NCBI RefSeq assembly: GCF_000025665.1
Contig: NC_013926.1
Coordinates: 360,001 to 392,000 of the forward strand
Length of the DNA stretch: 32,000 nucleotides
Direction: 5' to 3'
Source: Aciduliprofundum boonei T469
GTDB lineage: Archaea; Thermoplasmatota; Thermoplasmata; Thermoplasmatales; Aciduliprofundaceae
The notes under the pieces were generated by a model. The model did no database searches. It had not been told where the DNA came from and saw only the letters and a list, made by a program, of their open reading frames with translations. Shown in pieces: positions 9,295-31,020 of the stretch (positions within the stretch are counted from its first letter, which is position 1; each line of letters begins with the position of its first letter). The translations under genes were made by a program, and so were the position numbers.

Positions 9295-9510
9295 TTACAC
9301 CTCAAATATGAGCTTTTCATCCTCAAAAATTCTAAAATGCTCTCTCAAGCCGAGAATTTCTCTAATTTTATTGATACGCTCTTGCATATAATTTTCAAAC
9401 TCTTCACGCTTATCCTCTCTCATAACCTTCTCAGCAGTTTTGTAAAGGGATATCTGAAGTTTAACATCAAATCTGATTTTCTCATCAAGATTTGAGAGAT
9501 CTACATCCAT
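9295..9510 (-). CDS. Hypothetical small protein (71 aa)
   Basis: ATG ORF lying 2 nt upstream of the TatD-like gene on the same strand, so probably co-transcribed. Confidence 0.5.
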   Translation of the reverse strand: MDVDLSNLDEKIRFDVKLQISLYKTAEKVMREDKREEFENYMQERINKIREILGLREHFRIFEDEKLIFEV

Positions 9511-9552
9511 AAATTAGGAAATATTTTGAAATATTTAAACCCATTCTATCCT

Positions 9553-10212
9553 ATGAAAGCGATTATAACTGGAGGAGACAGCGGACTCGGATTTCACATA
9601 GCAAAAGAGCTTAAAAACAGGAGATATGAGATAATAATCATCGCAAGAAACGAAGATAAGTTAAGAAGGGCGGCAGAGAATTTGAAAGCAAATTGGTATG
9701 CTATTGATTTATCCAAAAACTATGAGGATGCTGGAGAAATCATTAAAAGGAAGAATCCCACAATTCTGGTAAATAATGCAGGATTCGGATTGTATGGAAA
9801 ATTTGAAGAGCAGAATTGGGATAAACTCGAAAATATGATTAAACTTAATATTTTGGCGCTTACATACCTAACATACATAGGGCTAAAAGTTATGAATACC
9901 GGCCATATCCTAAATGTATCCTCAGTGGCTGCTTGCAGAGCTCAGAAGAAATTAAGCGTTTATGCAGCTACAAAATCTTATGTAGAACAATTCACCAAGA
10001 GTTTGAATAAAGAGAGAAGAAAAATTAAAATTTCATATCTTCTACCAGGTCCGACAAAAACGGATTTTTTCAAAAATGCCAATATGCCAACAAGAGGCTT
10101 TGAAAGATTTATGCTGAATCCAGAGAAAGTGGCGAAGTATGCCGTGGATAAAATGCTAAAAGGTAAGGAGAGAATAGTACCGGGAATCATCTACAAGCTC
10201 TACTGTCTTTAA
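9553..10212 (+). CDS. Short-chain dehydrogenase/reductase (SDR)
   Basis: TGGDSGLG (TGxxxGxG), NNAG and catalytic YAATK (YxxxK). ATG 9553 is preferred over the TTG 9526 given by the ORF track. Confidence 0.85.
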   Translation: MKAIITGGDSGLGFHIAKELKNRRYEIIIIARNEDKLRRAAENLKANWYAIDLSKNYEDAGEIIKRKNPTILVNNAGFGLYGKFEEQNWDKLENMIKLNILALTYLTYIGLKVMNTGHILNVSSVAACRAQKKLSVYAATKSYVEQFTKSLNKERRKIKISYLLPGPTKTDFFKNANMPTRGFERFMLNPEKVAKYAVDKMLKGKERIVPGIIYKLYCL

Positions 10213-10311
10213 AATTAAAAATACCCGAAATATATTTCAAACGCACATAGAGCTATCTGCACCAACAGAATGAGAGATATAGCCTTGCTCAATACATCCT
10301 TGAATAAATAG

Positions 10312-10437
10312 TGCCCGAGCCGGGATTCGAACCCGGGTCAAGGGCTACCTGCAAAGCCCCCTTCTTTACGGGTAAAGCACCTTTTTAAAGGGGCTTTTCC
10401 GCAGGCCCCCAGGATATCCATGCTACCCCACTCGGGC
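10312..10437 (-). tRNA. tRNA-Arg(GCG) with a 52-nt intron (10347..10398) at 37/38
   Basis: Acceptor GCCCGAG/CTCGGGC, T-arm CCGGG-TTCGAAT-CCCGG, anticodon stem GGGGC/GCCCT (one G-U pair), loop CU-GCG-G|intron|A. CCA is not encoded. Confidence 0.8.
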
Positions 10438-10463
10438 TTGGGAGGAAATTAGCATACACATAT

Positions 10464-10757
10464 TTATGTTTTGGTCATTTTCTTCTTTCTTTCCTTCGCA
10501 GTATAACCAGTTGCGCGGAAAAGAAAATCATTCCATCTTTTCAATGTTTCTTGGGCTAAGCTGCTCTCAACCTTTCTACTCTTTGTCTCTGCAGCCATTT
10601 TTCCATCCTCAATCCATACCTCTATTCTATCAAGAGCCCCGAAGGAAGATAAAAGATGTCCATTCTCTTCCCTAACATTCCCAAATATATCCTTCATTAT
10701 CTTCCCAATCTCTTCCAAGCTTTTTTTGTGACCTCTCTTGAAAGTATACAACCTCAT
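10464..10757 (-). CDS. Hypothetical protein (97 aa)
   Basis: ATG ORF downstream of and codirectional with the respiratory cluster. No recognisable motif. Confidence 0.5.
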   Translation of the reverse strand: MRLYTFKRGHKKSLEEIGKIMKDIFGNVREENGHLLSSFGALDRIEVWIEDGKMAAETKSRKVESSLAQETLKRWNDFLFRATGYTAKERKKKMTKT

Positions 10758-10783
10758 AAAAATAGGAAAAATTAAGGATATTA

Positions 10784-11266
10784 TTAACTTTTCTCCTCTT
10801 CCTTAGGTTTAGGAGGTACATAGTCCTCTGGCCTGAATAATACTTCATCCATATGTATCTCCTTATCCTTCTTCTCTCTAATCTCGTAAGTTGGTATAAA
10901 TTTGAACTCATCTATATTCTCCGTTACAAGCTCATACCTTGGAGTCAATATGAGTGATTTTGTAGGGCAAATATCGGTACAGAACCCGCAGTAGCAGCAG
11001 CGTCCATAGTCAATCACAGGCCTCCATTTAAGTCCCTTCTTTCCCGAATTCTCAATTTTAACATATGTAATTGCTGCTGCAGGACAAACTTTAGAACATA
11101 GCTGGCATCCTATACAGGTTTCAATATTATTAGAATGAAAGCCTCTATAGCGCTCTGTAGGTAATTCAAGCCCTTCTATATCAGTATGTTTTTGATAAGG
11201 ATACTTAACAGTATGGGGAGCTTTTGAAAGATGTCTCAATGCTTTAAAAGGTTTTACTATACTCAT
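10784..11266 (-). CDS. NuoI-like 2x[4Fe-4S] ferredoxin subunit (MbxN-like)
   Basis: Two CxxCxxCxxxCP motifs (CIGCQLCSKVCP, CCYCGFCTDICP). SD GAGGTGATC upstream. Last gene of the cluster. Confidence 0.85.
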   Translation of the reverse strand: MSIVKPFKALRHLSKAPHTVKYPYQKHTDIEGLELPTERYRGFHSNNIETCIGCQLCSKVCPAAAITYVKIENSGKKGLKWRPVIDYGRCCYCGFCTDICPTKSLILTPRYELVTENIDEFKFIPTYEIREKKDKEIHMDEVLFRPEDYVPPKPKEEEKS

Positions 11267-11270
11267 CTGA

Positions 11271-12398
11271 TCACCTCTCTATGTCTGGAGCACAAACATC
11301 CAGACTGAATATTGTTTGAGAGAAATCTGCAATATTCAACCCCTTAGCTATAGTTTCTGTGACATTTATTCCATGGGTATAAGAGGGGCCACGCACATGA
11401 ACCCTGTACGGCATTTTCCCACCGTCGCTTATAACAAAATATCCATATTCTCCCTTAGAACTCTCAACACGAGCGTAAGCATAGCCTGCGGGAACTTTCC
11501 ACGCAATAGGATTGGGAAGTTTCAAAGTGTGAGGACCATCTGGTATTTTCTTTATAACCTGTCTAAGGATCCTTATACTCTGCTCGATTTCCAATCTTCT
11601 GACAATCATCCTAGAATAGCAATCACATCCATGGCCAAGAACTTCAAAATCACCAAATTTAGGATAATGAGGTATCTCAAAATCCAAATCTGGATAAGCT
11701 GCATAAGGATCTACCTTTCTGACATCATATTCATAGCCACAAGCTCTGAGATTTGGACCTGTAATTCCCCACTCTATTGCCTTGTCTTTTGGTACAACTC
11801 CCACATCAGGAGCTCTGCGGAAAAACACTTCATTAGCAAATAGGAGCTTATCGTAAAACTCCAGTCTGCTTTCCAAATAATTAAGAACCTTTTCGAGTTT
11901 GCGCAAAAATCCATCGGGGAGATCCCAGCGCACACCTCCGGGGAAGATGAAGATGTGATATACTCTGGCTCCAGTAAGCTGCTCAAATAAATCGAGCAAA
12001 TAATCCCTATCTCCAATCGTCCACTGACCTACGGTATAAAGACCTATGGCCCCCGCATAACCACCCAATGTTAAAAGATGGGACGACAACCTGGCCATTT
12101 CCAGCACTATGGTACGTATGTATTTGGCTCTCTCTGGAATATCCCAGTCCATAAGGGACTCAACGGCCATAGCATATACTGCCTCATTCACATCGGGCTC
12201 AGGAACGCATATTCTAGGAATCAATGCCACATTCATCTGCCAAGTACGCTTCTCCATTAATTTCTCAAAACCTCTGTGGAGATAACCTGGATGAGCTTCC
12301 GCCTTCACAATAGTATCTCCATCAACCCAAAGATGATACATAAAGTTACCAGTTATACCTGGATGTTGCGGCCCAATGAATAATTCAAATTCCTTCAT
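11271..12398 (-). CDS. NuoD / [NiFe]-hydrogenase large-subunit-like catalytic subunit (MbxL-like) with incomplete Ni-Fe cysteine motifs
   Basis: 375 aa starting FIGPQHPG. N-terminal PRICVPEP replaces RxCGxC, and C-terminal DVCAPDIER replaces DPCxxCxxR. ATGA overlap with the upstream gene. Confidence 0.85.
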   Translation of the reverse strand: MKEFELFIGPQHPGITGNFMYHLWVDGDTIVKAEAHPGYLHRGFEKLMEKRTWQMNVALIPRICVPEPDVNEAVYAMAVESLMDWDIPERAKYIRTIVLEMARLSSHLLTLGGYAGAIGLYTVGQWTIGDRDYLLDLFEQLTGARVYHIFIFPGGVRWDLPDGFLRKLEKVLNYLESRLEFYDKLLFANEVFFRRAPDVGVVPKDKAIEWGITGPNLRACGYEYDVRKVDPYAAYPDLDFEIPHYPKFGDFEVLGHGCDCYSRMIVRRLEIEQSIRILRQVIKKIPDGPHTLKLPNPIAWKVPAGYAYARVESSKGEYGYFVISDGGKMPYRVHVRGPSYTHGINVTETIAKGLNIADFSQTIFSLDVCAPDIER

Positions 12399-12892
12399 TC
12401 TTTTTCACCCCCCTCATCTATAAGGGGCACGCTTTCATATTTCTCCCTCGCATATTTTACTGTGTCAAAATCCTTCCGCATGGGTGGCATCTCATTCCAA
12501 TCTTCTAAGATGAACTCACCCAATCTATCATTACCCTCGAATTCCACTCCGAACATTTCATAAATCTCCCTCTCATATGTTTCAATCTGAGGGAACAGAT
12601 GCCTCAGAGTTCTATATTTTGGCTCATTTCTCGGCAAAAATATACTTAAAAATACATCCTCGCTATCTTCATAACTAAAAAGATGATACACGAGCTCAAA
12701 TTTTTCATCCTTTATCCAGTCAATGCAACTTAAAGCTACAAAGTGGTTAAAACCACTATTTTTGAATTTGATTATAGCATCCTCAAGCTTCTCGGGTTTC
12801 ACCTCTGCCTTGTATCTTGGAAGAGTATTTCCCTTCACCTTTAGCTTTTCAAATTCCACTCCGAGCTCTTTGAATATCTGCTCGGCCTTCAT
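12395..12892 (-). CDS. NuoC-like subunit (MbxK-like)
   Basis: 165 aa with NuoC-like blocks (ERExYDxFG-like: YEREIYEMFGVEFEGN). ATGA overlaps on both sides. Confidence 0.8.
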   Translation of the reverse strand: MKAEQIFKELGVEFEKLKVKGNTLPRYKAEVKPEKLEDAIIKFKNSGFNHFVALSCIDWIKDEKFELVYHLFSYEDSEDVFLSIFLPRNEPKYRTLRHLFPQIETYEREIYEMFGVEFEGNDRLGEFILEDWNEMPPMRKDFDTVKYAREKYESVPLIDEGGEKE

Positions 12893-20192: not shown

Positions 20193-20313
20193 GGGGCCGT
20201 GGGGTAGCTTGGTTATCCTACCGGCTTTGGGAGAGGAACCACCAGCGGGTTCCTTTACCTCCTGCAACCCTCCAGAAAAGCCGGTGACTCCGGTTCAAAT
20301 CCGGGCGGCCCCA
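20193..20313 (+). tRNA. tRNA-Pro(UGG) with a 47-nt intron (20232..20278) at 37/38; its 3' end is the casposon target
   Basis: Acceptor GGGGCCG/CGGCCCC, T-arm TCCGG-TTCAAAT-CCGGG, anticodon stem CCGGC/GCCGG, loop UU-UGG-G|intron|A. CCA is not encoded. Confidence 0.85.
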
Positions 20314-20323
20314 CTACGAGGAG
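20309..20323. repeat. Target-site duplication, left copy (CCCCACTACGAGGAG)
   Basis: Identical 15-mer at 29400..29414. The left copy includes the last 5 nt of tRNA-Pro. Confidence 0.85.
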
Positions 20324-20359
20324 GGGGATATATATACATCCCCTCTTAAGTTCCCTTTT
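20324..20359. repeat. Left terminal inverted repeat
   Basis: GGGGATATATATACATCCCCTCTTAAGTTCCCTTTT matches the reverse complement of 29364..29399 at 35 of 36 positions. Confidence 0.9.
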
Positions 20360-23058
20360 CACATCACTCCTGATTTGTAGATCTGATATAGGATTGGATA
20401 CAACTTCCTTTTTCTCTTGGGATACTTTCCACGCTTTAGGTTTGTTTTAAGCTTCTTTATTGCCCTTAATGAGACTTTGACATCAGGATATTTTGCATTA
20501 ATATACTCTAATATTTTCTTAGGTGAAAGACTCGATATAAAATCTTTGAAATCTTCCATTTTCTCATATTCTATGTATTCAGGTATACCCATTATCATAT
20601 TTTTCTCTAGCTCGTTAGACTCCTTCCCTATGTATTTTATGTGGTCAACTGTTATTTGTCTCCTATTCAACAATCCAACATCCCCTTCATACTTTCCGTC
20701 ATGGTGGTTAAAGTAGTCTTCAAGAACTTTAGAAATGGGTTTCCAGTATTCTTTTGTATCTAAGGGTAGATCTTGAGAGCTCAGACCTGACTTGTAGTCA
20801 ATAAACGGTCGGTATGGTATAAGCTCAAACTTTTTATCTTGAGGGCTTATGAAGGGCATAATTGGTATTACTGGCTCACCATTCTCGGAGCGGTAGGCAG
20901 TCCCAACAGTAACAAAATTGAAAGGTTTTATCTTCTTTGCTAGTTCTTTATTATTGTTCAGATAGTCAAACCTTTTAAGAACCTGTGGGGTTGTGACTGT
21001 TAGTTGAGATACAGCATACTTGTGGTGGTATTTTTCAATTATCTCTTCTCTACTATCAGGGTGATAGTGCATTTTTAGAATATCTTCCCAAACCTCTTTT
21101 GGGTCTATGCCTATTATATGACCTAAGCCGTGAGAAGACTCTTTTAATATCTCTATTTTTTCACCATTAATACGATACAGGCAATACCTCTTAGCAGAGA
21201 TGCCATAAAATAGCACATTATCTAATGGTATGCCCTCTTCGTTGTCCTCGATTTTAAACATGTCAACACTATAAGAATAGGGGTTTAATTTTTCAAAGAG
21301 CTCCTTGACCTCTCTAACTTTTTCAGGTTTTACAAATATGCTGTCTGTATCCATGTAGGCATAGTACCCATTATTTGAAGCAATACTTTCAGCAATAGCC
21401 AAGATAAGCCTTGCACCAGAGGTTAGGAATATGGCTATTATTGGGTTATATGCCTTTCCAATGCTCTCTATTTTGCCTACCTTAGTGTTAAACTCTTCAA
21501 GACCATAGACGGTGATCTCCTTATCTTTTACTTTTTCACTATTTACCTCTATAAATATTCCATAAGAAGAAGCATTTGCTATTATCTTAAACTCATTCTG
21601 GATAACTTTTAACTTCTCAATATCTCCAATGCCTCTCTTTATTTGGTCTTTGTACTCAAGCCTCTTCTCTATGATCTTCTTTATGAAATTCTCTTCAGGG
21701 GCTATTGTAATACCGTTGATCTCTATAGCTCTTAAACTCTGTCTACCTACTGGCTCAAATGTCAAAGAATCTATTATTTCAGGGGCTTTTCCAGTTAAAA
21801 TTTTAGATGAAATTACATCTTCTATAGTGTACCATATAGGTCTTTGAGAAGTCAGGTAGTTAATTCCTATATTGTAGACATCTCCACGGTACTTCATCCT
21901 TATGGGTAATATGTCCCTATCAGGTCTTATTAATACAATACTCCTCATTAAAGGGTCTCTCCATACCTCTTTATCCTGTAGGCTTTCAACACTTATCTTT
22001 GATAGGAATGATTTGACCTCACCTTTGGTAGCTCTTACTCTTATAGACCTAGCCTTAAGAATCTCATCTAGCTTGAGTAGTATGAAAAGGGTGGGGTACA
22101 TAGAGGTAAAGTCAAGGTATGTAACGGGAATAGGGCTCTTCCTTATCTTACACTCAGTCCTACCACCATAATAAGTAGTCATAGCAAAGCCCAGTACCTC
22201 TTTAGGAAAATCAGGGTTAAGCTCCATAAATGGACTTATACCCATCTTATTGAGGTAGTACTTACCTATTGATGCTGGGGAATATAGTAGGTTTTCTTCC
22301 ATGTCTATATTGAACATCTCTTTTCTCTCCATAAGTTTAAGGTAAAGTTCAAAGGTCACTTGCACATCGTTTAAGTTGTACTCTATGTAGTCTTTATTTA
22401 TTGCTCCATGCCTCTCAGGGTGTGTCTTATAGTGCTCACACTTGAACTCTTTGGAGGCTGACTCTAAAGTATGTCTCTTGTTTGTTAGGGCAAATGCAAA
22501 AGTCCTCAGATCTACAAAATACCCTTCGTAGTGCGTGTATTTTCTCTTGCTCTTCTTTCTGAGTGGTCTTAAAAACTTTATAAAAGACTTTGTGGAGTCC
22601 AATGCTCTTATCATGACCCTTGGGTTTCTAGGATCCTTTGAGAGTGTAAAAGAAAAAGCCCTCGGGTCTTTCCTAGATATTGTGTAGTCAATAGCCAGTC
22701 TAGACAAGTCAAAAGGTAAGTTGAACCCTATACACTTTGCCCTTGCTTGGTAAACATAGGGGTAAAAGACCTTTTCAACAAACCTAGTCTTTGGTATGAC
22801 CTTAATACTGTGGCTATCTCCAAACTCTATTATTTTCTCCTTTTCAGACTCTTTTAGGTTATCTTCATAGAAAATATACCTCTCAATAACCTTATTGTTC
22901 CTTGCAATTAAACTTGATCCGAATAGTAGGTTTTGGTACTCATCAGTAGTTGTCTCGGTATCGAAAACAAGCAATAGTGAGGGGTTAGGTGATATTTTCT
23001 CTTTATACCCACTCCTATTATCACTATGAGAAAAACACCTTAGAGCAATATCACTCAT
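20359..23058 (-). CDS. polB: Family-B DNA polymerase (casposon PolB)
   Basis: Exo I FDTET, Exo II FNLPFD, Exo III YNLND. Pol A YLDFTSMYP, Pol B KIIANASSYG, Pol C YMDTDS, plus KRY. ATG 23058 is preceded by GGAGGT; the ORF track TTG is at 23073. Confidence 0.9.
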   Translation of the reverse strand: MSDIALRCFSHSDNRSGYKEKISPNPSLLLVFDTETTTDEYQNLLFGSSLIARNNKVIERYIFYEDNLKESEKEKIIEFGDSHSIKVIPKTRFVEKVFYPYVYQARAKCIGFNLPFDLSRLAIDYTISRKDPRAFSFTLSKDPRNPRVMIRALDSTKSFIKFLRPLRKKSKRKYTHYEGYFVDLRTFAFALTNKRHTLESASKEFKCEHYKTHPERHGAINKDYIEYNLNDVQVTFELYLKLMERKEMFNIDMEENLLYSPASIGKYYLNKMGISPFMELNPDFPKEVLGFAMTTYYGGRTECKIRKSPIPVTYLDFTSMYPTLFILLKLDEILKARSIRVRATKGEVKSFLSKISVESLQDKEVWRDPLMRSIVLIRPDRDILPIRMKYRGDVYNIGINYLTSQRPIWYTIEDVISSKILTGKAPEIIDSLTFEPVGRQSLRAIEINGITIAPEENFIKKIIEKRLEYKDQIKRGIGDIEKLKVIQNEFKIIANASSYGIFIEVNSEKVKDKEITVYGLEEFNTKVGKIESIGKAYNPIIAIFLTSGARLILAIAESIASNNGYYAYMDTDSIFVKPEKVREVKELFEKLNPYSYSVDMFKIEDNEEGIPLDNVLFYGISAKRYCLYRINGEKIEILKESSHGLGHIIGIDPKEVWEDILKMHYHPDSREEIIEKYHHKYAVSQLTVTTPQVLKRFDYLNNNKELAKKIKPFNFVTVGTAYRSENGEPVIPIMPFISPQDKKFELIPYRPFIDYKSGLSSQDLPLDTKEYWKPISKVLEDYFNHHDGKYEGDVGLLNRRQITVDHIKYIGKESNELEKNMIMGIPEYIEYEKMEDFKDFISSLSPKKILEYINAKYPDVKVSLRAIKKLKTNLKRGKYPKRKRKLYPILYQIYKSGVM

Positions 23059-23485
23059 ACTTATTACCTCCAAGGGGGAAACACCTTAGTGCAATTTCCC
23101 TAGCAATCCTCTCATAAAAGAAGTTTTGGGTCTTGTAAGCCTTTAACTCTAAAATATCTATGAGTCCCCTCAAAAAGAACTTGTGTCTCTTTTCTGTAGG
23201 TAATCCTCTCTTTAACCATTCTTCGCCCCATAGGTTCTGTTTAGCACTTAAATGTTGGTGACATTCTTTACAGACTAAAACGACCCTGCTGTCATGCTTC
23301 CTACCTGCAATATGGTGTCTTTCAAGACCTTTTGTAGCTCCGCATATCTCACAGTACTTTGGTAGCTCTCTCTCATACTCAAATAAAGAGAGAACCCAGT
23401 TCGAAGCTTTAGAATACTCTTTTTCAATAGTATCTCTAACATCCATAAGGATCTCATCAATGCATAGTGGAGACTGAGAATACAT
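23051..23485 (-). CDS. HNH endonuclease
   Basis: CEICGATKGLERHHIAGRKHDSRVVLVCKECHQHL is CxxC...HH...CxxCH, a zinc-stabilised HNH core. Its 3' end overlaps the polB start by 8 nt. Confidence 0.8.
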   Translation of the reverse strand: MYSQSPLCIDEILMDVRDTIEKEYSKASNWVLSLFEYERELPKYCEICGATKGLERHHIAGRKHDSRVVLVCKECHQHLSAKQNLWGEEWLKRGLPTEKRHKFFLRGLIDILELKAYKTQNFFYERIAREIALRCFPLGGNKYE

Positions 23486-23491
23486 AGGGAC

Positions 23492-24001
23492 TCACCAATT
23501 GTATATCTCATAGAACTCGGGTTCTTCTATAGACCTTGCAATATCTACCAGTTTTTCAGGGTCAGTCTCTAGCTTGTGTATGTTACCCTGAGCATCTTTT
23601 ATTTTTATGTTTCTAAACCTCTCAACAGCTGTAATATCACCAGTCTCTAGAAATATTCTTACTGCATTGTGGTACTTACCTATTATAGAAGCATACCTTG
23701 AGTCATTCACCTCTATGCTAATTTTCTTACCATTTTCATTTATGTCCATTACTCTAGAGATTTTGTCATACCTCTTTGCTATCCACCTACCGTTAACCTT
23801 CTTAAAAGCATTAGTGCTCTTAATCACGGTGTTTGGAGATATACCTACCTTCTTACATGCACTTGACAAAGACTCCCCTTTCCTTACTCTAGCAAGTACT
23901 TCCAAGCTCTTTTCCCTTAGCATTTTCTCTCGAGGGCTCAATAAGCTCCAAGGCTTCTTGAAGACCCTCTCTTTTCCAGACATACTACTTTTCTCTCTCA
24001 T
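23492..24001 (-). CDS. HTH DNA-binding protein (casposon-encoded)
   Basis: HTH-like LSSACKKVGISPNTVIKS. The start is ambiguous: ATG 24001 has TTTATAGTATAGG directly upstream (possibly leaderless), and alternatives are 23983 and 24064. The ORF-track start 24118 would overlap the divergent gene. Confidence 0.55.
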   Translation of the reverse strand: MREKSSMSGKERVFKKPWSLLSPREKMLREKSLEVLARVRKGESLSSACKKVGISPNTVIKSTNAFKKVNGRWIAKRYDKISRVMDINENGKKISIEVNDSRYASIIGKYHNAVRIFLETGDITAVERFRNIKIKDAQGNIHKLETDPEKLVDIARSIEEPEFYEIYNW

Positions 24002-24129
24002 ACCTATACTATAAACATTGGGGATATATAATATAGTGAATTCACTACACTTTACTTTATCCATAATGTTAAATATCTTTGAAAAACTTGAAAATACACG
24101 GAAAATATTATATTGCATTGTTCACTATC
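24002..24129. promoter_or_regulatory. Divergent promoter/operator region inside the casposon
   Basis: AT-rich spacer between divergent HTH genes. Contains GGGGATATATAATATA (24020..24035, the same first 11 nt as the TIR tip) and the perfect palindrome GTGAATTCAC (24036..24045). Confidence 0.4.
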
Positions 24130-25170
24130 ATGAGTATGGAAAAGTTCCAATCAGCTACTAGGATAATAGCACATAGAAGGAAACAAAAGACAAGAGAAAA
24201 AGTTCTTGGAATTATAAAATCACATGGAAAAATAAGGTTCAAAGAGCTTATGCAAGAAAGTGGGTTGTCTAATAGGTGGCTCTCTATAACTCTCCATGAA
24301 CTCCTTGAGGAGGGTCTGATTAAGCAAGTAATTGGGGATATAGAGGTTAAGGGTAAAAATGGGGAGCCTGTGTTAAAGAAGAGGGCTAAGTTATACACAA
24401 TCACTAAAAAAGGTGATAATGTTTACAGTAATGCATGGTATATATTACACAAACTAGAAGATTTGAGAGAAAGAGGTTCTACATATTATCATAACGATTT
24501 TGAACTATTTGGAGTTGATATAATAATGAATGGGGTAGAAGGTGATGCATTTAATACATTACCTACAATTCCAGAATATGAATTTTTCATAATGCGTAGC
24601 ATATTTAGAAAAGTGGGTGCATACGATATTAAAAACCTCTCAGGTGAAGTGATTATTGCACTAAACTTTGATATGCATAAATTAATTGGAGGTATTTTAG
24701 AAATTAAAGACTTCATTAAGATGTTAATTAAAAATGCCGATGTTTTTGAGAGTGATCTTTTTAGGGATATGGGTTGGAGAGATAAAATTCACAAGTTTAT
24801 ACATCTCCTTAATTATTCCAAATTACTAGTTGATAATAAGGATATAATTGAAAGAATAACGAAAAATGGGAATAAGTTATTTTTGTCCTACAAGCCATTA
24901 ATAATTTCGAGTTATTATCGTACTGGAAAAGGTCTTGATGAAGAAATACTAGAAAAGGTCAAAGAGCATATTGAAAATGATACAAATCCCTTAGAGGATG
25001 AAAATATTAAGCATAAATTGATTAGAAAATCTGGTAATATTACCGAATTTCCCATTTATGATTATTTAAATTTACTTAAGGTATTTAATCTCACTAATTA
25101 CCCATTTCTACAAAAAATAGAGTTAGTGAATGAAAAAATAACTAGAACAATAGAGAATGGAGGTATCTAA
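24130..25170 (+). CDS. Winged-HTH protein with a large C-terminal domain of unknown function (casposon-encoded)
   Basis: N-terminal wHTH-like KVLGIIKSHGKIRFKELMQESGLSNRWLSITLHELLEEGLIKQV. ATG 24130 is preferred over TTG 24079. Its stop is immediately followed by the cas1 ATG. Confidence 0.6.
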   Translation: MSMEKFQSATRIIAHRRKQKTREKVLGIIKSHGKIRFKELMQESGLSNRWLSITLHELLEEGLIKQVIGDIEVKGKNGEPVLKKRAKLYTITKKGDNVYSNAWYILHKLEDLRERGSTYYHNDFELFGVDIIMNGVEGDAFNTLPTIPEYEFFIMRSIFRKVGAYDIKNLSGEVIIALNFDMHKLIGGILEIKDFIKMLIKNADVFESDLFRDMGWRDKIHKFIHLLNYSKLLVDNKDIIERITKNGNKLFLSYKPLIISSYYRTGKGLDEEILEKVKEHIENDTNPLEDENIKHKLIRKSGNITEFPIYDYLNLLKVFNLTNYPFLQKIELVNEKITRTIENGGI

Positions 25171-26385
25171 ATGAACCCTCTTTTAGTTAGTGGTTATGGA
25201 ATTTCCATAAATGTGGATAAAAGGAAACTAGTAATAAGGGAAAAAGGTAAACAAGTTCACGAATTTTACCCCCACCAGATAAACTACGATTCCCTAATAA
25301 TTGAAGGTTATTACGGGAATATTTCCTTTGAAGCTATAAGATGGTTAATGAAGCACAATATAACGGTATCCGTTTTAAACTGGAACGGAAACCTACTTTC
25401 CGTATTTTTGCCTAAGGAACCCATTAACGGAAAACTGAAAATAAGGCAGTATGAAATATACATTAACGAAAAAGAGAGACTGAAAATTGCGGAAAAAATA
25501 TTAGAGGAAAAAATAAGGAAATCGGAAAATATGCTATATGAATTAAGTGAGTATTATCCAGAAATTGAGCACATTAAAGTAAAAAAGAGGATAGAAAAAG
25601 AGGAAAAACTAAAAAGGGACATGGAATTAAAAGAGGAAAATAAACCGAAATTATCCTATTTATTGATGTATGAGGGAAGGGTTGCGCAAATATACTGGAA
25701 AGAGTTATCAAAGATTTTCAATAAACTGTACCCTGAATTTAACTTCACTTCAAGGAGTACTAAGTCTTATTCTTGGAACATGAACGCTTCAGATGAAATA
25801 AATGCACTTTTAAACTATTCTTACGCACTACTTGAGTCTATGATAAGAAAGCATATCAATGCGGTAGGTCTAGACCCATCGATTGGTTTTTTGCATGAAC
25901 TAGCTTCCTCTAAGACCCCTCTTGTATATGATCTTCAAGAGCTTTTTAGGTGGGTATCTGACCTATCCGTTATCCAACTTCTAGAGGATAAGAAGTTAAA
26001 GAAATCATCTTTTATTGTAACTGAGAACTACCATATACGCCTTAAGCCCCAGACCTCAAAGCTCCTTGTTGAGAAGTTCAAGCTCAATATGAACAAGAAA
26101 TATGAAGTTGGTAAAAAGAGGTACACTCTGGAAACAATTATGTTCAATACAGTTCGATCCTTGGGTAAATATATCCTTGGGAAATCTAACACCTTGAAAT
26201 TTGAGATTCCATATATCCGTATAGAACATATAGAACCTGAATTAACAGAGAAAATACTTAAAATGACACCAGAAGAGAGGAAAGCACGGGGAATAAACAA
26301 GTCTACACTCTGGTACCAAAAGAAGAAACTGGCTCAAGGTAAGAGTATAAAAGTGTATGGGAAGGTAAAGAGTAAATTAAAATAG
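25171..26385 (+). CDS. cas1: Cas1 homolog (casposase) with a C-terminal HTH extension
   Basis: Cas1 signature blocks: LMYEGRVAQIYW (catalytic Glu), INALLNYSYALLES, GFLHE (His), LVYDLQELFRW (Asp/Glu). C-terminal TPEERKARGINKSTLWYQKKKL is HTH-like. GGAGGT lies 8 nt upstream. Confidence 0.9.
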   Translation: MNPLLVSGYGISINVDKRKLVIREKGKQVHEFYPHQINYDSLIIEGYYGNISFEAIRWLMKHNITVSVLNWNGNLLSVFLPKEPINGKLKIRQYEIYINEKERLKIAEKILEEKIRKSENMLYELSEYYPEIEHIKVKKRIEKEEKLKRDMELKEENKPKLSYLLMYEGRVAQIYWKELSKIFNKLYPEFNFTSRSTKSYSWNMNASDEINALLNYSYALLESMIRKHINAVGLDPSIGFLHELASSKTPLVYDLQELFRWVSDLSVIQLLEDKKLKKSSFIVTENYHIRLKPQTSKLLVEKFKLNMNKKYEVGKKRYTLETIMFNTVRSLGKYILGKSNTLKFEIPYIRIEHIEPELTEKILKMTPEERKARGINKSTLWYQKKKLAQGKSIKVYGKVKSKLK

Positions 26386-26407: not shown

Positions 26408-29311
26408 ATGTCAGAAAAAAGAGGAAAGGTCACTGAAAGATCTTTATATCCAGCCATTATAGATCTATTAAAAAAAAGAGGTGCCGAAGGAGTCGAGGAG
26501 ATTAAATACGAATCTCAGCCAGATATAATCGCTGATTGGTTAGGAGCAAGATGGATTATTAGCATAAAAATAGGGAATTATACAAAAAGTATGTTCTTTA
26601 AAAATGCCATGATACAATATGCAAGGCATATAATTGATTCGGGTCTTAAATATGGAATGATTATATTTTTACCAGAGAGTATTAGAAATATTTCTGTAGA
26701 AGAGAAAGCTCTTTATAATGCTATCAGAAATAAAAAAGCTTATGTTATTTTAGATACTCCTGAAACTCAGAAAGAATTTTTAGATACCTTACCCAATATT
26801 TTTGAGGAAGTAGAAAGAATTTTAAAAGAGAAAATCAAATCCACATATAGTTTAAAAACGGTAATTACCCTTTTAAAAGAGCAAATCAATGATATTATGA
26901 AAGAGACTAGAATTACAGAGAAGGAAATGACCAATATAATTACAAGTGATGAATTGTTTCTTGGGATTAGTGCATCAAAACATAAGGATATAAAAGTAAT
27001 AAAGTTTATTTCGACATATATTTTTTTAACACAGGTTCTATTTGCTAGGTTATACGGTGTAGAACATCCAGCAATTTTAAGCGGTTTTGATATTAGAAAT
27101 ATAACTAAAGAAGGTATAAGAGAACTCTTTAGACGAATTACTGAGATAAATTATAGACCAATATATAAATTTGATATACTGGATACCATACCTGAACATT
27201 ATATAAAAGATACTTTCACTTTGATATGGAATTTAAAGATAGAAAATATTAGGTTTGAACTCCCAGGAAGATTATTTCATGAGCTTATGCCAAAAGAAAT
27301 TAAAAAAATGCTTGCTGCTTTTTATACTAGACCAATAGCTGCAGAAATTTTATCTTGTGTTACAATTAACAATGCTGAAGAAGTCGTATTTGATCCTGCT
27401 TGCGGTTCTGGTACGATACTGACTGCAGCATATAGAAGAAAACGAGAATTATGGAATAAACAAGAAGATCCTCACAAACTCTTTTGTGAAGAACAAATTT
27501 ATGGAACAGATATAATGCCATTTGCCGTAAATCTAACCACAGCTAATTTAGCATCTCTTAATCCTAAAATTACAATAGAAAAAATGAACATAGCAAGAGC
27601 TGATAGTCTTAAACTTGAACTAAACGTGCCTATTAAAAATGGTTTATCTAAATTAGAAAGATATGGTATACCTATCTCATCTAATATTAAAAGTAAGAAT
27701 ATGCAAGGTGATGAATATGATATGGTTCTAGACCTAATGGATGTTGTTCTAATGAATCCCCCATTTACAAAAATTGAAAGGGGAGTAAAGAAATATATAA
27801 AAATAGAGCGTTTCAAATCACGAGTTGGAGGAGAAATAGGATTATGGGGGCATTTTATAGCTTTGGCAGATATGATTCTTAAGCCAAATGGTATGTTTGG
27901 AGGGGTTATTCCTATTAATATATTGAGGGGAAGAGAAAGTGAAAAAGTAAGAAAAATAGTTTTTGAAGAGTGGTTACCTCTATATGTAATAAAATCAACA
28001 ATGAATTATGGTTTTTCTGAATCTTCTGAATATAGAGACATTCTAATAATAGCTAAAAAAACCAAATCAAAACCTATTAATCATAAAGTTAAGTTTGTTT
28101 TAATTAAAAAAGATCTAAATTCATTAAGCTTTAAAGATGTTAAGCGGATATGTGATAGGATTAAAACCTCATCAAAGTTAAATGACCCTCTACTAGAAAT
28201 AAGATCGTATTCTATGGAAGATATAAAAAAGCATTTTGTTAATATGATGTGGTTTATTAGTGGGTCATCTTTTGAATGGAAAGATAATCTTTTAAACATA
28301 ATAAGAAAATCCGAAATGGTGTTAGATTATTTCCCACATAGTGGTAATGGATATTTTATGGAAGGATATAGACCCGTACCAAAAGGTGTTTCTAAATTCA
28401 TGTTTATTACAAGACCTATTAATGAAAATAGGATCGATAAAGCCTTTTTAGTTCTCATCAAAGAAGATGATAAAAAAATATTCGCTGAAACAAAAATGAT
28501 GTATGAAATGAGTAAACTCAATGAACATTCAAAGAGTAGCATTTTCGATTTTGATAAAGATAAGTTTTTACTCACTATTAGAACACCCGTTGGATTGAAT
28601 ACAATGGATATTACAAATAAACATGATTATATTGCTATATCTCCTTATAAGGACATAGAAAAAATCCAGAGACTTTCAGGATTTAATAGTTCATTAAAAA
28701 ATAGTTATTGGAATAATATTAAAAAACAAATGAATAATATAAAAACTAAAATTATTGTAAGCCGTCGCATAAACCCTTATTCTCCAAATACACATTTGAT
28801 AGCTTTCTTCTCTGAAAATGATATTTTTCCTTCCAATCAAGTAAATGTGGTTGTAGAACCAGATCCAAGGAAGGCAAAAGCTGTGACCGTTTTATTAAAT
28901 TCAATATTTTTCTTGGCTTATTTCTTTAATCTTAAGGAAGAGACTACTGGGAGATATATAGATATTCGTTTTTATGATTTATACTCAATGAAACTGTATC
29001 CTACTACTAACACACAAATTGATAATTTAGTAAAAGTATTTAATAAATTTAAAGATGTAAATTTTCCTCCCTTAAGAGAGCAGCTTGATGAGCATTTTAC
29101 TGAAAGATATTCTGTATTCTGGAGCTCAGAAAGAAAAAAAATTAAGCCTTTGATACCTGTTGATTCTATAAAGCCGCATCCTGTACGACTAAAATTCGAT
29201 AAAGCCATAATAAAAGCTTTAAACTTATCAATTTCGCATGAAGAACTATTGCAAGCTTATAATGCAATAATAAACGATATGATTATTACCCGAGGATTAA
29301 AAAAAGATTGA
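26408..29311 (+). CDS. Large N6-adenine DNA methyltransferase, gamma-class, with N- and C-terminal extensions (type IIG/IIL-like single-chain R-M candidate)
   Basis: Motif I VFDPACGSGTILTAA is followed by motif IV LMNPPFTK. 967 aa. The N-terminal ~100 aa has a PD...(S)xK-like segment (QPDIIADWLGARWIISIK). The long C-terminal region could be a target-recognition domain. Confidence 0.75.
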   Translation: MSEKRGKVTERSLYPAIIDLLKKRGAEGVEEIKYESQPDIIADWLGARWIISIKIGNYTKSMFFKNAMIQYARHIIDSGLKYGMIIFLPESIRNISVEEKALYNAIRNKKAYVILDTPETQKEFLDTLPNIFEEVERILKEKIKSTYSLKTVITLLKEQINDIMKETRITEKEMTNIITSDELFLGISASKHKDIKVIKFISTYIFLTQVLFARLYGVEHPAILSGFDIRNITKEGIRELFRRITEINYRPIYKFDILDTIPEHYIKDTFTLIWNLKIENIRFELPGRLFHELMPKEIKKMLAAFYTRPIAAEILSCVTINNAEEVVFDPACGSGTILTAAYRRKRELWNKQEDPHKLFCEEQIYGTDIMPFAVNLTTANLASLNPKITIEKMNIARADSLKLELNVPIKNGLSKLERYGIPISSNIKSKNMQGDEYDMVLDLMDVVLMNPPFTKIERGVKKYIKIERFKSRVGGEIGLWGHFIALADMILKPNGMFGGVIPINILRGRESEKVRKIVFEEWLPLYVIKSTMNYGFSESSEYRDILIIAKKTKSKPINHKVKFVLIKKDLNSLSFKDVKRICDRIKTSSKLNDPLLEIRSYSMEDIKKHFVNMMWFISGSSFEWKDNLLNIIRKSEMVLDYFPHSGNGYFMEGYRPVPKGVSKFMFITRPINENRIDKAFLVLIKEDDKKIFAETKMMYEMSKLNEHSKSSIFDFDKDKFLLTIRTPVGLNTMDITNKHDYIAISPYKDIEKIQRLSGFNSSLKNSYWNNIKKQMNNIKTKIIVSRRINPYSPNTHLIAFFSENDIFPSNQVNVVVEPDPRKAKAVTVLLNSIFFLAYFFNLKEETTGRYIDIRFYDLYSMKLYPTTNTQIDNLVKVFNKFKDVNFPPLREQLDEHFTERYSVFWSSERKKIKPLIPVDSIKPHPVRLKFDKAIIKALNLSISHEELLQAYNAIINDMIITRGLKKD

Positions 29312-29363: not shown

Positions 29364-29399
29364 AAAAGGGAACTTAAGAGGGGATATATATATATCCCC
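29364..29399. repeat. Right terminal inverted repeat
   Basis: AAAAGGGAACTTAAGAGGGGATATATATATATCCCC. The terminal 20 nt (29380..29399) form a perfect palindrome. Confidence 0.9.
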
Positions 29400-29414
29400 C
29401 CCCACTACGAGGAG
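29400..29414. repeat. Target-site duplication, right copy (CCCCACTACGAGGAG)
   Basis: Identical to 20309..20323. Confidence 0.85.
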
Positions 29415-29646: not shown

Positions 29647-31020
29647 ATGAAAAGATTTCCAAAGGTGAAAGTTATCACACTTATAGTGGTTTTGCTCTTA
29701 TTATCTATTACTGCAGGATATTATATTTTAAACACCAACAAAATAAAAATTTTGGAGTGTGGGTATTTCTTTGGTGCCAATCCCAAAAATCCTAATCAAA
29801 CAATAACCTACATTTATTTGAAATTATCTGCGCCTGTTCATAATGGGGATATTATCCATATTTACAAAAATGAAAGCGATTTTTACTATAACTTGGTGAC
29901 TTGGAAGGTTAATCGCACACAGGATGGCAAAACCAATATAACCATACCGCTTGATATGCTTGATAATCTCAATGGCTCCATGGACATTTATATAAAGAGA
30001 GGTAGTTCTTATCTTTACAGGGGAAAAATATCGTTTTCTGTACACCCCCACCTTGATGTATCCGTGACAAATATACATGTTCGTCCTGTAAGTGCCAAAT
30101 ACGCGTACATAACAAATGTGCATCTCTTAATAAAGTCTCAAAGACCAATTTATATATGTGGATTGAATTTTACAGTGTTTAATATGAATATCTACAAGGA
30201 GGTTAATAGTGTGATTTATGGTGTAAAGAAGGTTAATATAAGTGTGTCTCCTGGAAAGGTTGTACAACTTGTGCAAAAGGGCATCGTGCCTGTGAAGATT
30301 ACACTTCTCTATCCAGCATATCCCGATAATCTTGATAAGCCAGAGAAATATCCCGTTGATAGTGAATGTGTAATCAATTTCACTTACCCTCCTGTTGTTA
30401 TAACTAATTTCTCGATTTATAATTCTTCGTCATATCCGTCATATATCTTCCTTTTATTTCAACTCAGCAGATTTCCTGATTATCCGGTCCACATTATAGT
30501 TTACAAACTCAATGGTACAATTATAGGAGAAGGATATGGTGTTGGAATAGGTAAAAATGATACTGTATTCATATCCGTACCCTTCCCCCCTAATTATAAT
30601 TTCAACGGCACATATGTTGCAGTTTTAGAAGACAATTACGGATTTGCCCTTAATAGCCTTACATTTACTCTCAAATCTGGGCCACTTAAGTTAATTTCTC
30701 ACGAAGAAATATTTAATGAAACAAATGACCCCAATAAAGTGATTTTGAGATCACTAGTCCTTAAACTGGAGAATCTTGGAAATTTCAACTTCTACATAAC
30801 ACACTATGAATATAAGATAAGTTTTATTTCAAATGGCACCGTTGCTGCATCAGGGGACTATACTTGGTTCTATCAAGCGATACCCCCCAGAAAATTTACT
30901 AATGTAACCCTTCCATTTTATGTGCACCTCATTAAAGGAAAAACTTATAAAATTTCCCTTACATTTGAAGGTGGCAACAAGAATGTCAAATGCACGATTG
31001 ATTACACTTTTAAAGCGTAA
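29647..31020 (+). CDS. Secreted or surface protein with an N-terminal signal/anchor and many N-glycosylation sequons
   Basis: N-terminal KVKVITLIVVLLLLSITAGYY. I count 16 N-x-S/T sequons in 457 aa. Beta-rich composition and no recognisable catalytic motif. Confidence 0.6.
   Translation: MKRFPKVKVITLIVVLLLLSITAGYYILNTNKIKILECGYFFGANPKNPNQTITYIYLKLSAPVHNGDIIHIYKNESDFYYNLVTWKVNRTQDGKTNITIPLDMLDNLNGSMDIYIKRGSSYLYRGKISFSVHPHLDVSVTNIHVRPVSAKYAYITNVHLLIKSQRPIYICGLNFTVFNMNIYKEVNSVIYGVKKVNISVSPGKVVQLVQKGIVPVKITLLYPAYPDNLDKPEKYPVDSECVINFTYPPVVITNFSIYNSSSYPSYIFLLFQLSRFPDYPVHIIVYKLNGTIIGEGYGVGIGKNDTVFISVPFPPNYNFNGTYVAVLEDNYGFALNSLTFTLKSGPLKLISHEEIFNETNDPNKVILRSLVLKLENLGNFNFYITHYEYKISFISNGTVAASGDYTWFYQAIPPRKFTNVTLPFYVHLIKGKTYKISLTFEGGNKNVKCTIDYTFKA

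Follow-up and report, generated by a model that had tools for sequence, protein, structure and literature searches.

AciBoo-C1 of Aciduliprofundum boonei is an experimental model casposon, the casposase of which has been studied in vitro; integration at its tRNA-Pro target with a 14-15-bp duplication has been reproduced in this way (PMC6614799). The cargo of AciBoo-C1 has already been described as encoding an N6 DNA methyltransferase (Krupovic et al. 2014, PMC4046053), and a methylase is absent from most casposons (PMC4046053). For this gene, the largest of the cargo, annotation has not gone beyond 'N6 DNA methyltransferase'. In this study we analyse the methylase gene of AciBoo-C1 in a 32,000-nucleotide stretch of the A. 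boonei T469 genome (NC_013926.1, positions 360,001 to 392,000, hereafter the window), where it is located at positions 26408..29311 of the plus strand. We consider it quite probable that the gene encodes a type IIG-like fusion protein whose methylase is probably active and whose nuclease may be weakened or lost, carried as cargo by the casposon. In the open literature searched, no paper joining 'casposon' and 'type IIG' was found, and the domain architecture, the variant nuclease motif and the wider family of the protein are undescribed there. To the known element and its N6 methylase we add a predicted type IIG-like architecture, a small uncharacterised superfamily with an apparently exclusive N-terminal nuclease-fold domain, a family-wide change from ExK to SxK together with an asparagine at position 57 unique to the casposon copy, and a second, apparently independent casposase-methylase linkage. 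The general view of casposons and of restriction-modification (RM) systems is unchanged by these results, which fill in an annotation.

Among characterised RM enzymes the nearest counterpart is the type IIG enzyme BpuSI (PDB 3S1S). BpuSI combines in one chain, and in the same order as predicted for the casposon protein, a PD-(D/E)xK domain, a helical connector, a gamma-class N6-methyladenine (m6A) methylase and a C-terminal recognition region, and it is likewise encoded by a solitary gene. However, the two proteins are only 12% identical and their sequence similarity is limited to the methylase core (profile E-value 4e-9), whereas the N-terminal domain of the casposon protein has no detectable sequence relation to that of BpuSI and belongs to a clade in which the Glu of ExK is replaced, here by Ser. 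The MmeI family (type IIL, PDB 5HR4) shares the one-protein architecture of restriction, modification and specificity domains (R-M-S) and gives a structural match with an E-value of about 4e-13. Membership in this family was rejected, the score of 22.3 bits against MmeI_Mtase being below the cut-off of 27 and matches to MmeI_N, MmeI_hel, MmeI_TRD and MmeI_C being absent. CamA and M.BseCI, both solitary gamma-class adenine methylases, superpose on the methylase and recognition half with template modelling (TM) scores of about 0.65-0.69 on the target, but they are devoid of an N-terminal nuclease-fold domain and a helical linker and are only 12-14% identical. If the nuclease of the casposon protein is dead, CamA and M.BseCI are the appropriate model for it.

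The open reading frame (ORF) at 26408..29311 (+) had been proposed as casposon cargo in an original prediction made from the nucleotide sequence. It is confirmed here, with an ATG start and a product of 967 amino acids (aa) that is identical (100% over the full length) to the NCBI entry 'class I SAM-dependent DNA methyltransferase' of Candidatus Aciduliprofundum boonei. More than 400 full-length homologs with 42-57% identity are found, so that the ORF is a real gene and not a product of chance. Its position within the casposon, claimed at the same time, is borne out by terminal inverted repeats (TIRs), an exact 15-bp target site duplication (TSD), a tRNA gene, Cas1 and an ORF with the motifs of a family B DNA polymerase (PolB), all of which are described below. 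Equally correct was the reading that motif I, FDPACGSGT (aa 328-336, 27389-27415), precedes motif IV, NPPF (aa 450-453, 27755-27766), which is the gamma-class order; the flanks, put at about 330 and 500 aa, measure 327 aa on the N-terminal side of motif I and 514 aa on the C-terminal side of motif IV. The gene is intact; in 8 of 178 highly conserved columns its product has a deviating residue, compared to a median of two in other members, and most of the substitutions are conservative, H375N and R592N being the exceptions.

The methylase domain proper comprises aa 285-570 (27260..28117). That it is a gamma-class N6-adenine methylase, as had been suggested, is supported by the motif order, by Pfam matches above cut-off and by sequence matches in the PDB. 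Pfam N6_Mtase covers aa 300-590 (E-value 4e-14, 53 bits versus a cut-off of 20.4) and Eco57I covers aa 362-519 (E-value 7e-10, 39.6 bits versus a cut-off of 25.3). The PDB sequence matches to the core are all DNA adenine methylases, namely PglX/BrxX, the M subunit of PacII, HsdM, M.BseCI, BsaXI, BpuSI and M.TaqI. The core is the only part of the protein detected by sequence profiles. Residues D329, G333, S334, G335, N450, P451 and P452 are invariant across the superfamily, the S-adenosylmethionine (SAM)-binding and catalytic motifs are intact, and motif I before motif IV with the recognition domain at the C-terminus is the arrangement of the gamma class. The methylase is judged very probably active.

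Structural information about the rest of the protein comes from an AlphaFold model of the whole chain, computed with a 40-sequence alignment as input (mean predicted local distance difference test (pLDDT) 85.5, predicted TM score (pTM) 0.83). Four modules are seen in the model: an N-terminal domain (aa 1-146, 26408..26845), a linker that is all-helical according to DSSP (aa 149-284, 26852..27259), the Rossmann-type, gamma-class m6A methylase and a mixed alpha/beta C-terminal recognition region (aa 575-967, 28130..29308). A Foldseek search of the PDB with the whole model returned BpuSI as the first match, with an E-value of 3.8e-24 and an alignment extending over nearly the full length of both proteins, followed by CamA, BrxX/PglX, M.BseCI, MmeI and DrdV. 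The assignment of the C-terminal part to target recognition draws on Foldseek matches to the recognition parts of BpuSI, CamA and M.BseCI, the alignments with the latter two extending over about 700 columns of methylase and recognition domain, and on a weak Pfam match to TaqI_C (E-value 0.01) at aa 762-858 (28691-28981). Moreover, aa 158-631 align, with an identity of about 26%, to proteins from tailed viruses of Halorubrum that carry the annotation 'type IIG restriction modification enzyme'. The model and the first rank of BpuSI thus support the earlier suggestion of a type IIG-like single-chain fusion, and the overall design is predicted to be a one-chain R-M-S arrangement of type IIG-like character. 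A nuclease-fold domain and a methylase are combined in one polypeptide at the level of predicted folds. The putative recognition domain is part of this polypeptide too, and the neighbourhoods read contain no partner M, S or R gene beside the methylase. As the canonical PD-(D/E)xK motif that defines type IIG enzymes is lacking (see below), the protein is filed as type IIG-like rather than as an established member of that type. Relative to most homologs, the recognition region of the A. boonei protein carries a lineage-specific insertion, approximately EMSKLNEHSKSS, at aa 697-712; it could alter specificity.

Modelled alone, the N-terminal domain reaches a pLDDT of 91.7 and adopts the topology alpha-beta-beta-beta-alpha-beta (H-E-E-E-H-E) with a core at aa 11-140. 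In the model, E10 is placed on helix 1, D39 opens strand 2 and S52-x-K54 lies on strand 3. Foldseek matches are mainly to nucleases, including Cas4 SSO0001, several Hjc resolvases, XisH and a splicing endonuclease. A Pfam scan of the A. boonei N-domain gave nothing useful, and a PDB profile search with the domain at E-values up to 10 gave no matches. Among the N-domains of 34 relatives, sub-threshold Pfam matches were obtained to Hjc (six members) and DpnII-MboI (four members), and further to CoiA_nuc, PDDEXK_9, NucS_C, Cas4, EcoO109I, NERD, Mrr_cat and VRR_NUC. With a canonical predicted core topology and with weak fold and profile matches concentrating on that fold, the idea that the N-terminus has a PD-(D/E)xK nuclease fold is supported. 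A profile of the N-domain searched against 1.84 billion representative proteins retrieved only 146 clusters, mostly of about 930-1140 aa if short fragments are set aside, with the domain at the N-terminus. The domain thus appears essentially confined to this architecture.

The PD...SxK segment noticed earlier is P38-D39...S52-I53-K54, and the domain carries in addition E10, E31 and Q70. The lack of the usual acidic residue, likewise noticed, holds not for this protein alone but for the whole clade: the 120 close homologs have Ser (97), Gly (19), Pro (three) or Ala (one) at position 52, so that none has a canonical PD-(D/E)xK motif. The other residues of the putative site are retained in this clade devoid of E52, with E10 in 118/118, E31 in 116/120, D39 in 120/120 and K54 in 119/120. 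In 109 representative N-domains of the wider superfamily, Glu is the most frequent residue at position 52 (61 domains), followed by Ser (22) and Gln (21), while E10 (109/109), D39 (108/109), K54 (104/109) and E31 (96/109) are again well conserved. WP_248565342, a member encoded on plasmid pRMAS01 of Methanothermobacter tenebrarum, has the canonical PD...EVK. Distant relatives with a canonical PD...ExK indicate that the N-domain is nuclease-derived, and by residue comparison the superfamily descends from a canonical E...PD...ExK nuclease. Position 57, three residues past the Lys, is D or E in 114 of the 120 close homologs, a relative with D57 being found in Thermococcus sp. GR7; it is acidic in 26% of the E52-type clusters versus 73% of the S/G/P-type clusters, which hints that the acid moved from position 52 to 57 in the S/G-type clade. 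N57 is found in the A. boonei protein only among the 120 close homologs. Its codon, AAT at 26576-26578, is one transition away from GAT, and positions 58-60 of the protein offer no acid.

Restriction endonucleases of the Cfr10I/NgoMIV type have a PD...SxK motif, with Ser at the (D/E) position and the acid supplied from elsewhere; the substitute Glu comes about 14 residues further on, in the next helix. The casposon protein resembles them in the Ser at this position, but here the candidate acid is three residues past the Lys and is absent (N57) in A. boonei, and the two are related neither in sequence nor by family. Since S or G replaces the Glu of ExK, since acid-57 is kept in 95% of the clade and since the casposon copy has N57, its cleavage is judged weakened or lost, and we regard it as rather doubtful that this copy still cuts. 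The natural series from ExK and QxK to SxK with D/E57 and SxK with N57 lends itself to the question of how one-chain RM enzymes get disarmed.

By analogy to BpuSI and MmeI, the C-terminal region would read a short DNA motif, whereupon the methylase would flip the target adenine and methylate it at N6, both on the host chromosome and on the casposon. The enzyme would act alone and need no partner genes. Relatives with a working nuclease would use the N-domain to cut unmodified DNA nearby. In practice, the casposon copy would then serve for defence or addiction as a cargo that only modifies DNA or restricts it weakly.

Several observations weigh against this interpretation. The near-invariance of E10, E31, D39 and K54 in a clade without E52 speaks for a remaining function of the domain that depends on them, so that cleavage could be retained. 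The covariation of positions 52 and 57 is confounded by shared ancestry, and residue 57 and E31 are candidate residues of the active site, in which they may or may not lie. The Foldseek matches of the N-domain are individually weak (best E-value 3.6e-3) and interspersed with unrelated folds. For a specificity domain, conservation of the C-terminal region is unusually high. Finally, in the literature no experiment or methylome was found for this protein or any member of its family; Table 2 of the archaeal RM survey, on methylation, has no entries for Aciduliprofundum under 'genomes with methylation data', and the gene is not individually identified in the supplements of that survey.

The protein belongs to an uncharacterised superfamily of proteins of about 950 aa, the genes of which are nearly always solitary. 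The close family (42-57% identity, full length) occurs, among others, in archaea of the groups Thermococcus, Archaeoglobales, Njordarchaeia, Thermofilum, Micrarchaeota and Promethearchaeota and in bacteria of the phyla Chloroflexota, Bipolaricaulota, Acidobacteriota, Planctomycetota and Armatimonadota. Plasmid-borne homologs are known from Methanothermobacter and Halorussus. Six chromosomal contexts were read, and in all of them the methylase has housekeeping genes as neighbours and is not accompanied by a partner gene for restriction or specificity or of BREX type; in one of the six (L006), CRISPR-Cas genes follow about 5 kb downstream. Another homolog adjoins Cmr genes. In a metagenome-assembled genome (MAG) of Pirellulales (L025:2518-13979), the homolog lies between a type II CRISPR locus with Cas9 and Cas1 and a Thoeris ThsB-TIR gene, a context that is defence-island-like. 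A weak Cas1 match near this homolog was considered as a casposase and rejected, as it is the Cas1 of the type II CRISPR-Cas9 locus. The fourth-closest homolog (52% identity; L043:1-22862, GCA_053997255.1) resides in a different mobile element with DNA_pol_B, Cdc6/Orc1, two resolvase genes, SLFN/AlbA_2, a tyrosine integrase and an SMC-like ATPase; this element contains no Cas1. Such a patchy, mobile and sometimes defence-island distribution fits an RM-type gene. A role of the casposon gene as defence or addiction cargo, which we infer, is helped by the solitary state of the genes, by the copies beside CRISPR and Thoeris or on plasmids and by the related methylases in viruses.

Linkage to a casposase is rare within the family. 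Cas1 is found beside the methylase in two of about 125 loci, A. boonei and an Acidobacteria MAG (L022), and a scan of 80 extra metagenome loci yielded no further Cas1 or PolB neighbours. In the Acidobacteria locus (JAJYIU010000007.1), positions 9428-9925 encode the C-terminal part of a truncated Cas1, which includes a Zn ribbon (Pfam Cas_Cas1, E-value 3.7e-10) and is a member of a large Zn-ribbon Cas1 family of more than 490 proteins. The remnant ends 54 nt before the methylase homolog (9980-12853), and the gene order is that of AciBoo-C1. Upstream of it a glycosyl hydrolase is encoded on the other strand, so that the rest of the element appears deleted, and the locus is likely a decayed bacterial casposon with the same type of cargo. 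The methylases of AciBoo-C1 and L022 are 41% identical and rank 171/228 and 224/229 in similarity to each other, being among the most distant pairs of the clade. A common casposon-borne ancestor of the two linked methylases was rejected because of this distance, which points to independent capture. Two further bacterial loci are casposon-like. One (L046:3079-8864) encodes a Zn-ribbon Cas1 of about 287 aa near a DNA_pol_B_2 (PF03175) gene homologous to the AciBoo-C1 PolB (E-value 3e-86), and beside this polymerase a homolog of the 208-aa ORF of the casposon (E-value 7.5e-10). The other (L045:7288-10629) has a PolB in fragments and a Cas1 split over two gene calls, and the casposase is directly followed by a SIR2_2 gene. 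With SIR2 instead of a methylase following the casposase, this position would hold interchangeable cargo, and together with the second methylase example the casposase-adjacent position looks like a site at which defence-type cargo is exchanged.

The most serious alternative to a disarmed fusion protein is a fully active type IIG enzyme. Accordingly, the S52 clade would have a rearranged metal site consisting of E10, E31, D39 and K54 with or without residue 57, and the casposon copy would still cleave DNA that lacks methylation, some distance away from the recognition site, thereby serving defence and post-segregational killing. The conserved residues speak in its favour, as a dead domain should drift; enzymes with PD...SxK and a relocated Glu offer a precedent, the architecture is that of BpuSI and several copies are solitary or lie beside defence genes. 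Nevertheless, the canonical Glu is missing, the sole conserved candidate for its substitution, D/E57, is replaced in exactly this copy with no acid following, and the loss of E52 in about 40% of the superfamily clusters fits repeated disarming. We hold a fully active enzyme to be unlikely. A more far-reaching version of the disarmed fusion protein is equally tentative and, in all its parts, unlikely as well: an undescribed type IIG-like lineage whose nuclease site was repeatedly remodelled or lost (ExK to SxK or QxK), from which casposons captured S52 members at least twice, in independent events and each time immediately downstream of the casposase, and in which the N57 copy of A. boonei is disarmed and confined to methylation, shielding element and host.

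Two other explanations concern the methylase itself and are both very improbable. The methylase could be a subunit of a multi-gene defence system, such as PglX of BREX, MAD2 of MADS or the type I HsdM, and need partners. The mad2 model is indeed the top PADLOC match (E-value 4e-16), weak NCBIfam matches to MAD2 and to BREX-1 and BREX-2 PglX exist, PglX/BrxX is among the structural as well as the sequence matches, and PglX/BrxX and MAD2 are the best sequence-profile matches for the methylase core. Yet the scores are 15-25-fold below the family cut-offs, with 27 versus 720 bits for MAD2, 24.6 versus 500 for BREX-1 and 19.8 versus 400 for BREX-2, the matches, including that to PADLOC mad2, are restricted to the methylase core, and PglX has no nuclease domain at the corresponding position. 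Neither the casposon nor the neighbourhoods of homologs with gene lists read contain partner genes, be it brx (brxA/B/C/L, pglZ), mad, hsdS or hsdR, and there is no match to HsdM_N. Membership in BREX PglX, MADS MAD2 and type I HsdM was rejected on these grounds, and a multi-gene subunit is the least probable of the explanations weighed here. Scarcely more probable is a methylase in the service of the casposon, which would mark the TIRs or the tRNA-Pro target and thus regulate casposase or excision, comparable to Dam methylation in IS10/Tn10. Such a role would explain the adjacency to the casposase, from whose stop codon the methylase start is separated by 22 nt in the same orientation, and a second adjacency in the same order occurs in L022. 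Against it stand the rarity of Cas1 neighbours in the family, the great distance between the two linked methylases with its implication of independent captures, the SIR2 gene in the corresponding place of L045 and the fact that most casposons do without a methylase.

The methylase ORF is cargo of the published casposon AciBoo-C1, for which all characteristic parts are present in the window: a Cas1 casposase, a family B polymerase, TIRs and a 15-bp TSD. An inverted repeat of 40 nt has its arms at 20320-20359 and 29364-29403 with a complementarity of 95%. The 15-mer CCCCACTACGAGGAG occurs exactly twice in the window, at 20309-20323 and 29400-29414, the expected number being 0. Left TSD (20309..20323) and left TIR (36 nt, 20324..20359) are thus directly adjacent, as are right TIR (29364..29399) and right TSD (29400..29414). 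The left TSD overlaps the 3' end of the target gene, an intron-containing tRNA-Pro (UGG) at 20193..20313 (+) that was identified by Rfam (tRNA, 45.5 bits, E-value 3.4e-07). The anticodon loop reads CT-TGG-GA, hence tRNA-Pro, and the gene length of 121 nt implies an intron. Because of this intron ARAGORN, which reported no tRNA in the window, missed the gene found by Rfam.

Following the left TIR, the minus strand encodes the family B DNA polymerase (904 aa, 20359..23073), recognised in translation by the motifs DTETT, YGGR and YMDTDS. It has no Pfam, NCBIfam, PADLOC or PDB sequence match; these motifs notwithstanding, the PolB lineage escapes the standard profile libraries. Also on the minus strand are an ORF of 144 aa (23051..23485) with no Pfam match and an ORF of 208 aa (23492..24118) with a weak helix-turn-helix (HTH) match (Pfam HTH_23, E-value 0.005). 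The plus strand encodes a putative winged-helix DNA-binding protein (363 aa, 24079..25170; weak Pfam HTH_45 and HTH_24 and a weak Csa3-like HTH), the Cas1 casposase (404 aa, 25171..26385; Pfam Cas_Cas1 E-value 5.1e-63, NCBIfam cas1 E-value 4e-54) and the methylase, after which no further gene precedes the right TIR, 52 nt past its stop codon. GC content is uneven within the casposon. It is 0.28-0.32 in the right half with the winged-helix gene, Cas1 and the methylase (24-29.4 kb) and 0.35-0.39 in the left half with PolB and the two small ORFs, compared to about 0.40 in the flanking host DNA; this may reflect a mosaic origin.

A few minor observations were made in the window. Two tandem direct repeats of 46 nt, 72% identical, are located at 23007-23098, where the start of PolB meets the 144-aa ORF. 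A scan for sigma-70 promoters gave fewer sites in the window than in shuffled sequences, the sigma-70 model being uninformative for an archaeon. Immediately beyond the right end of the casposon lies an ORF of 457 aa (29647-31020, +) with no Pfam or PADLOC match. Its product has an N-terminal hydrophobic segment and many N-x-S/T sequons and may be a host glycoprotein that is secreted or exposed on the surface.

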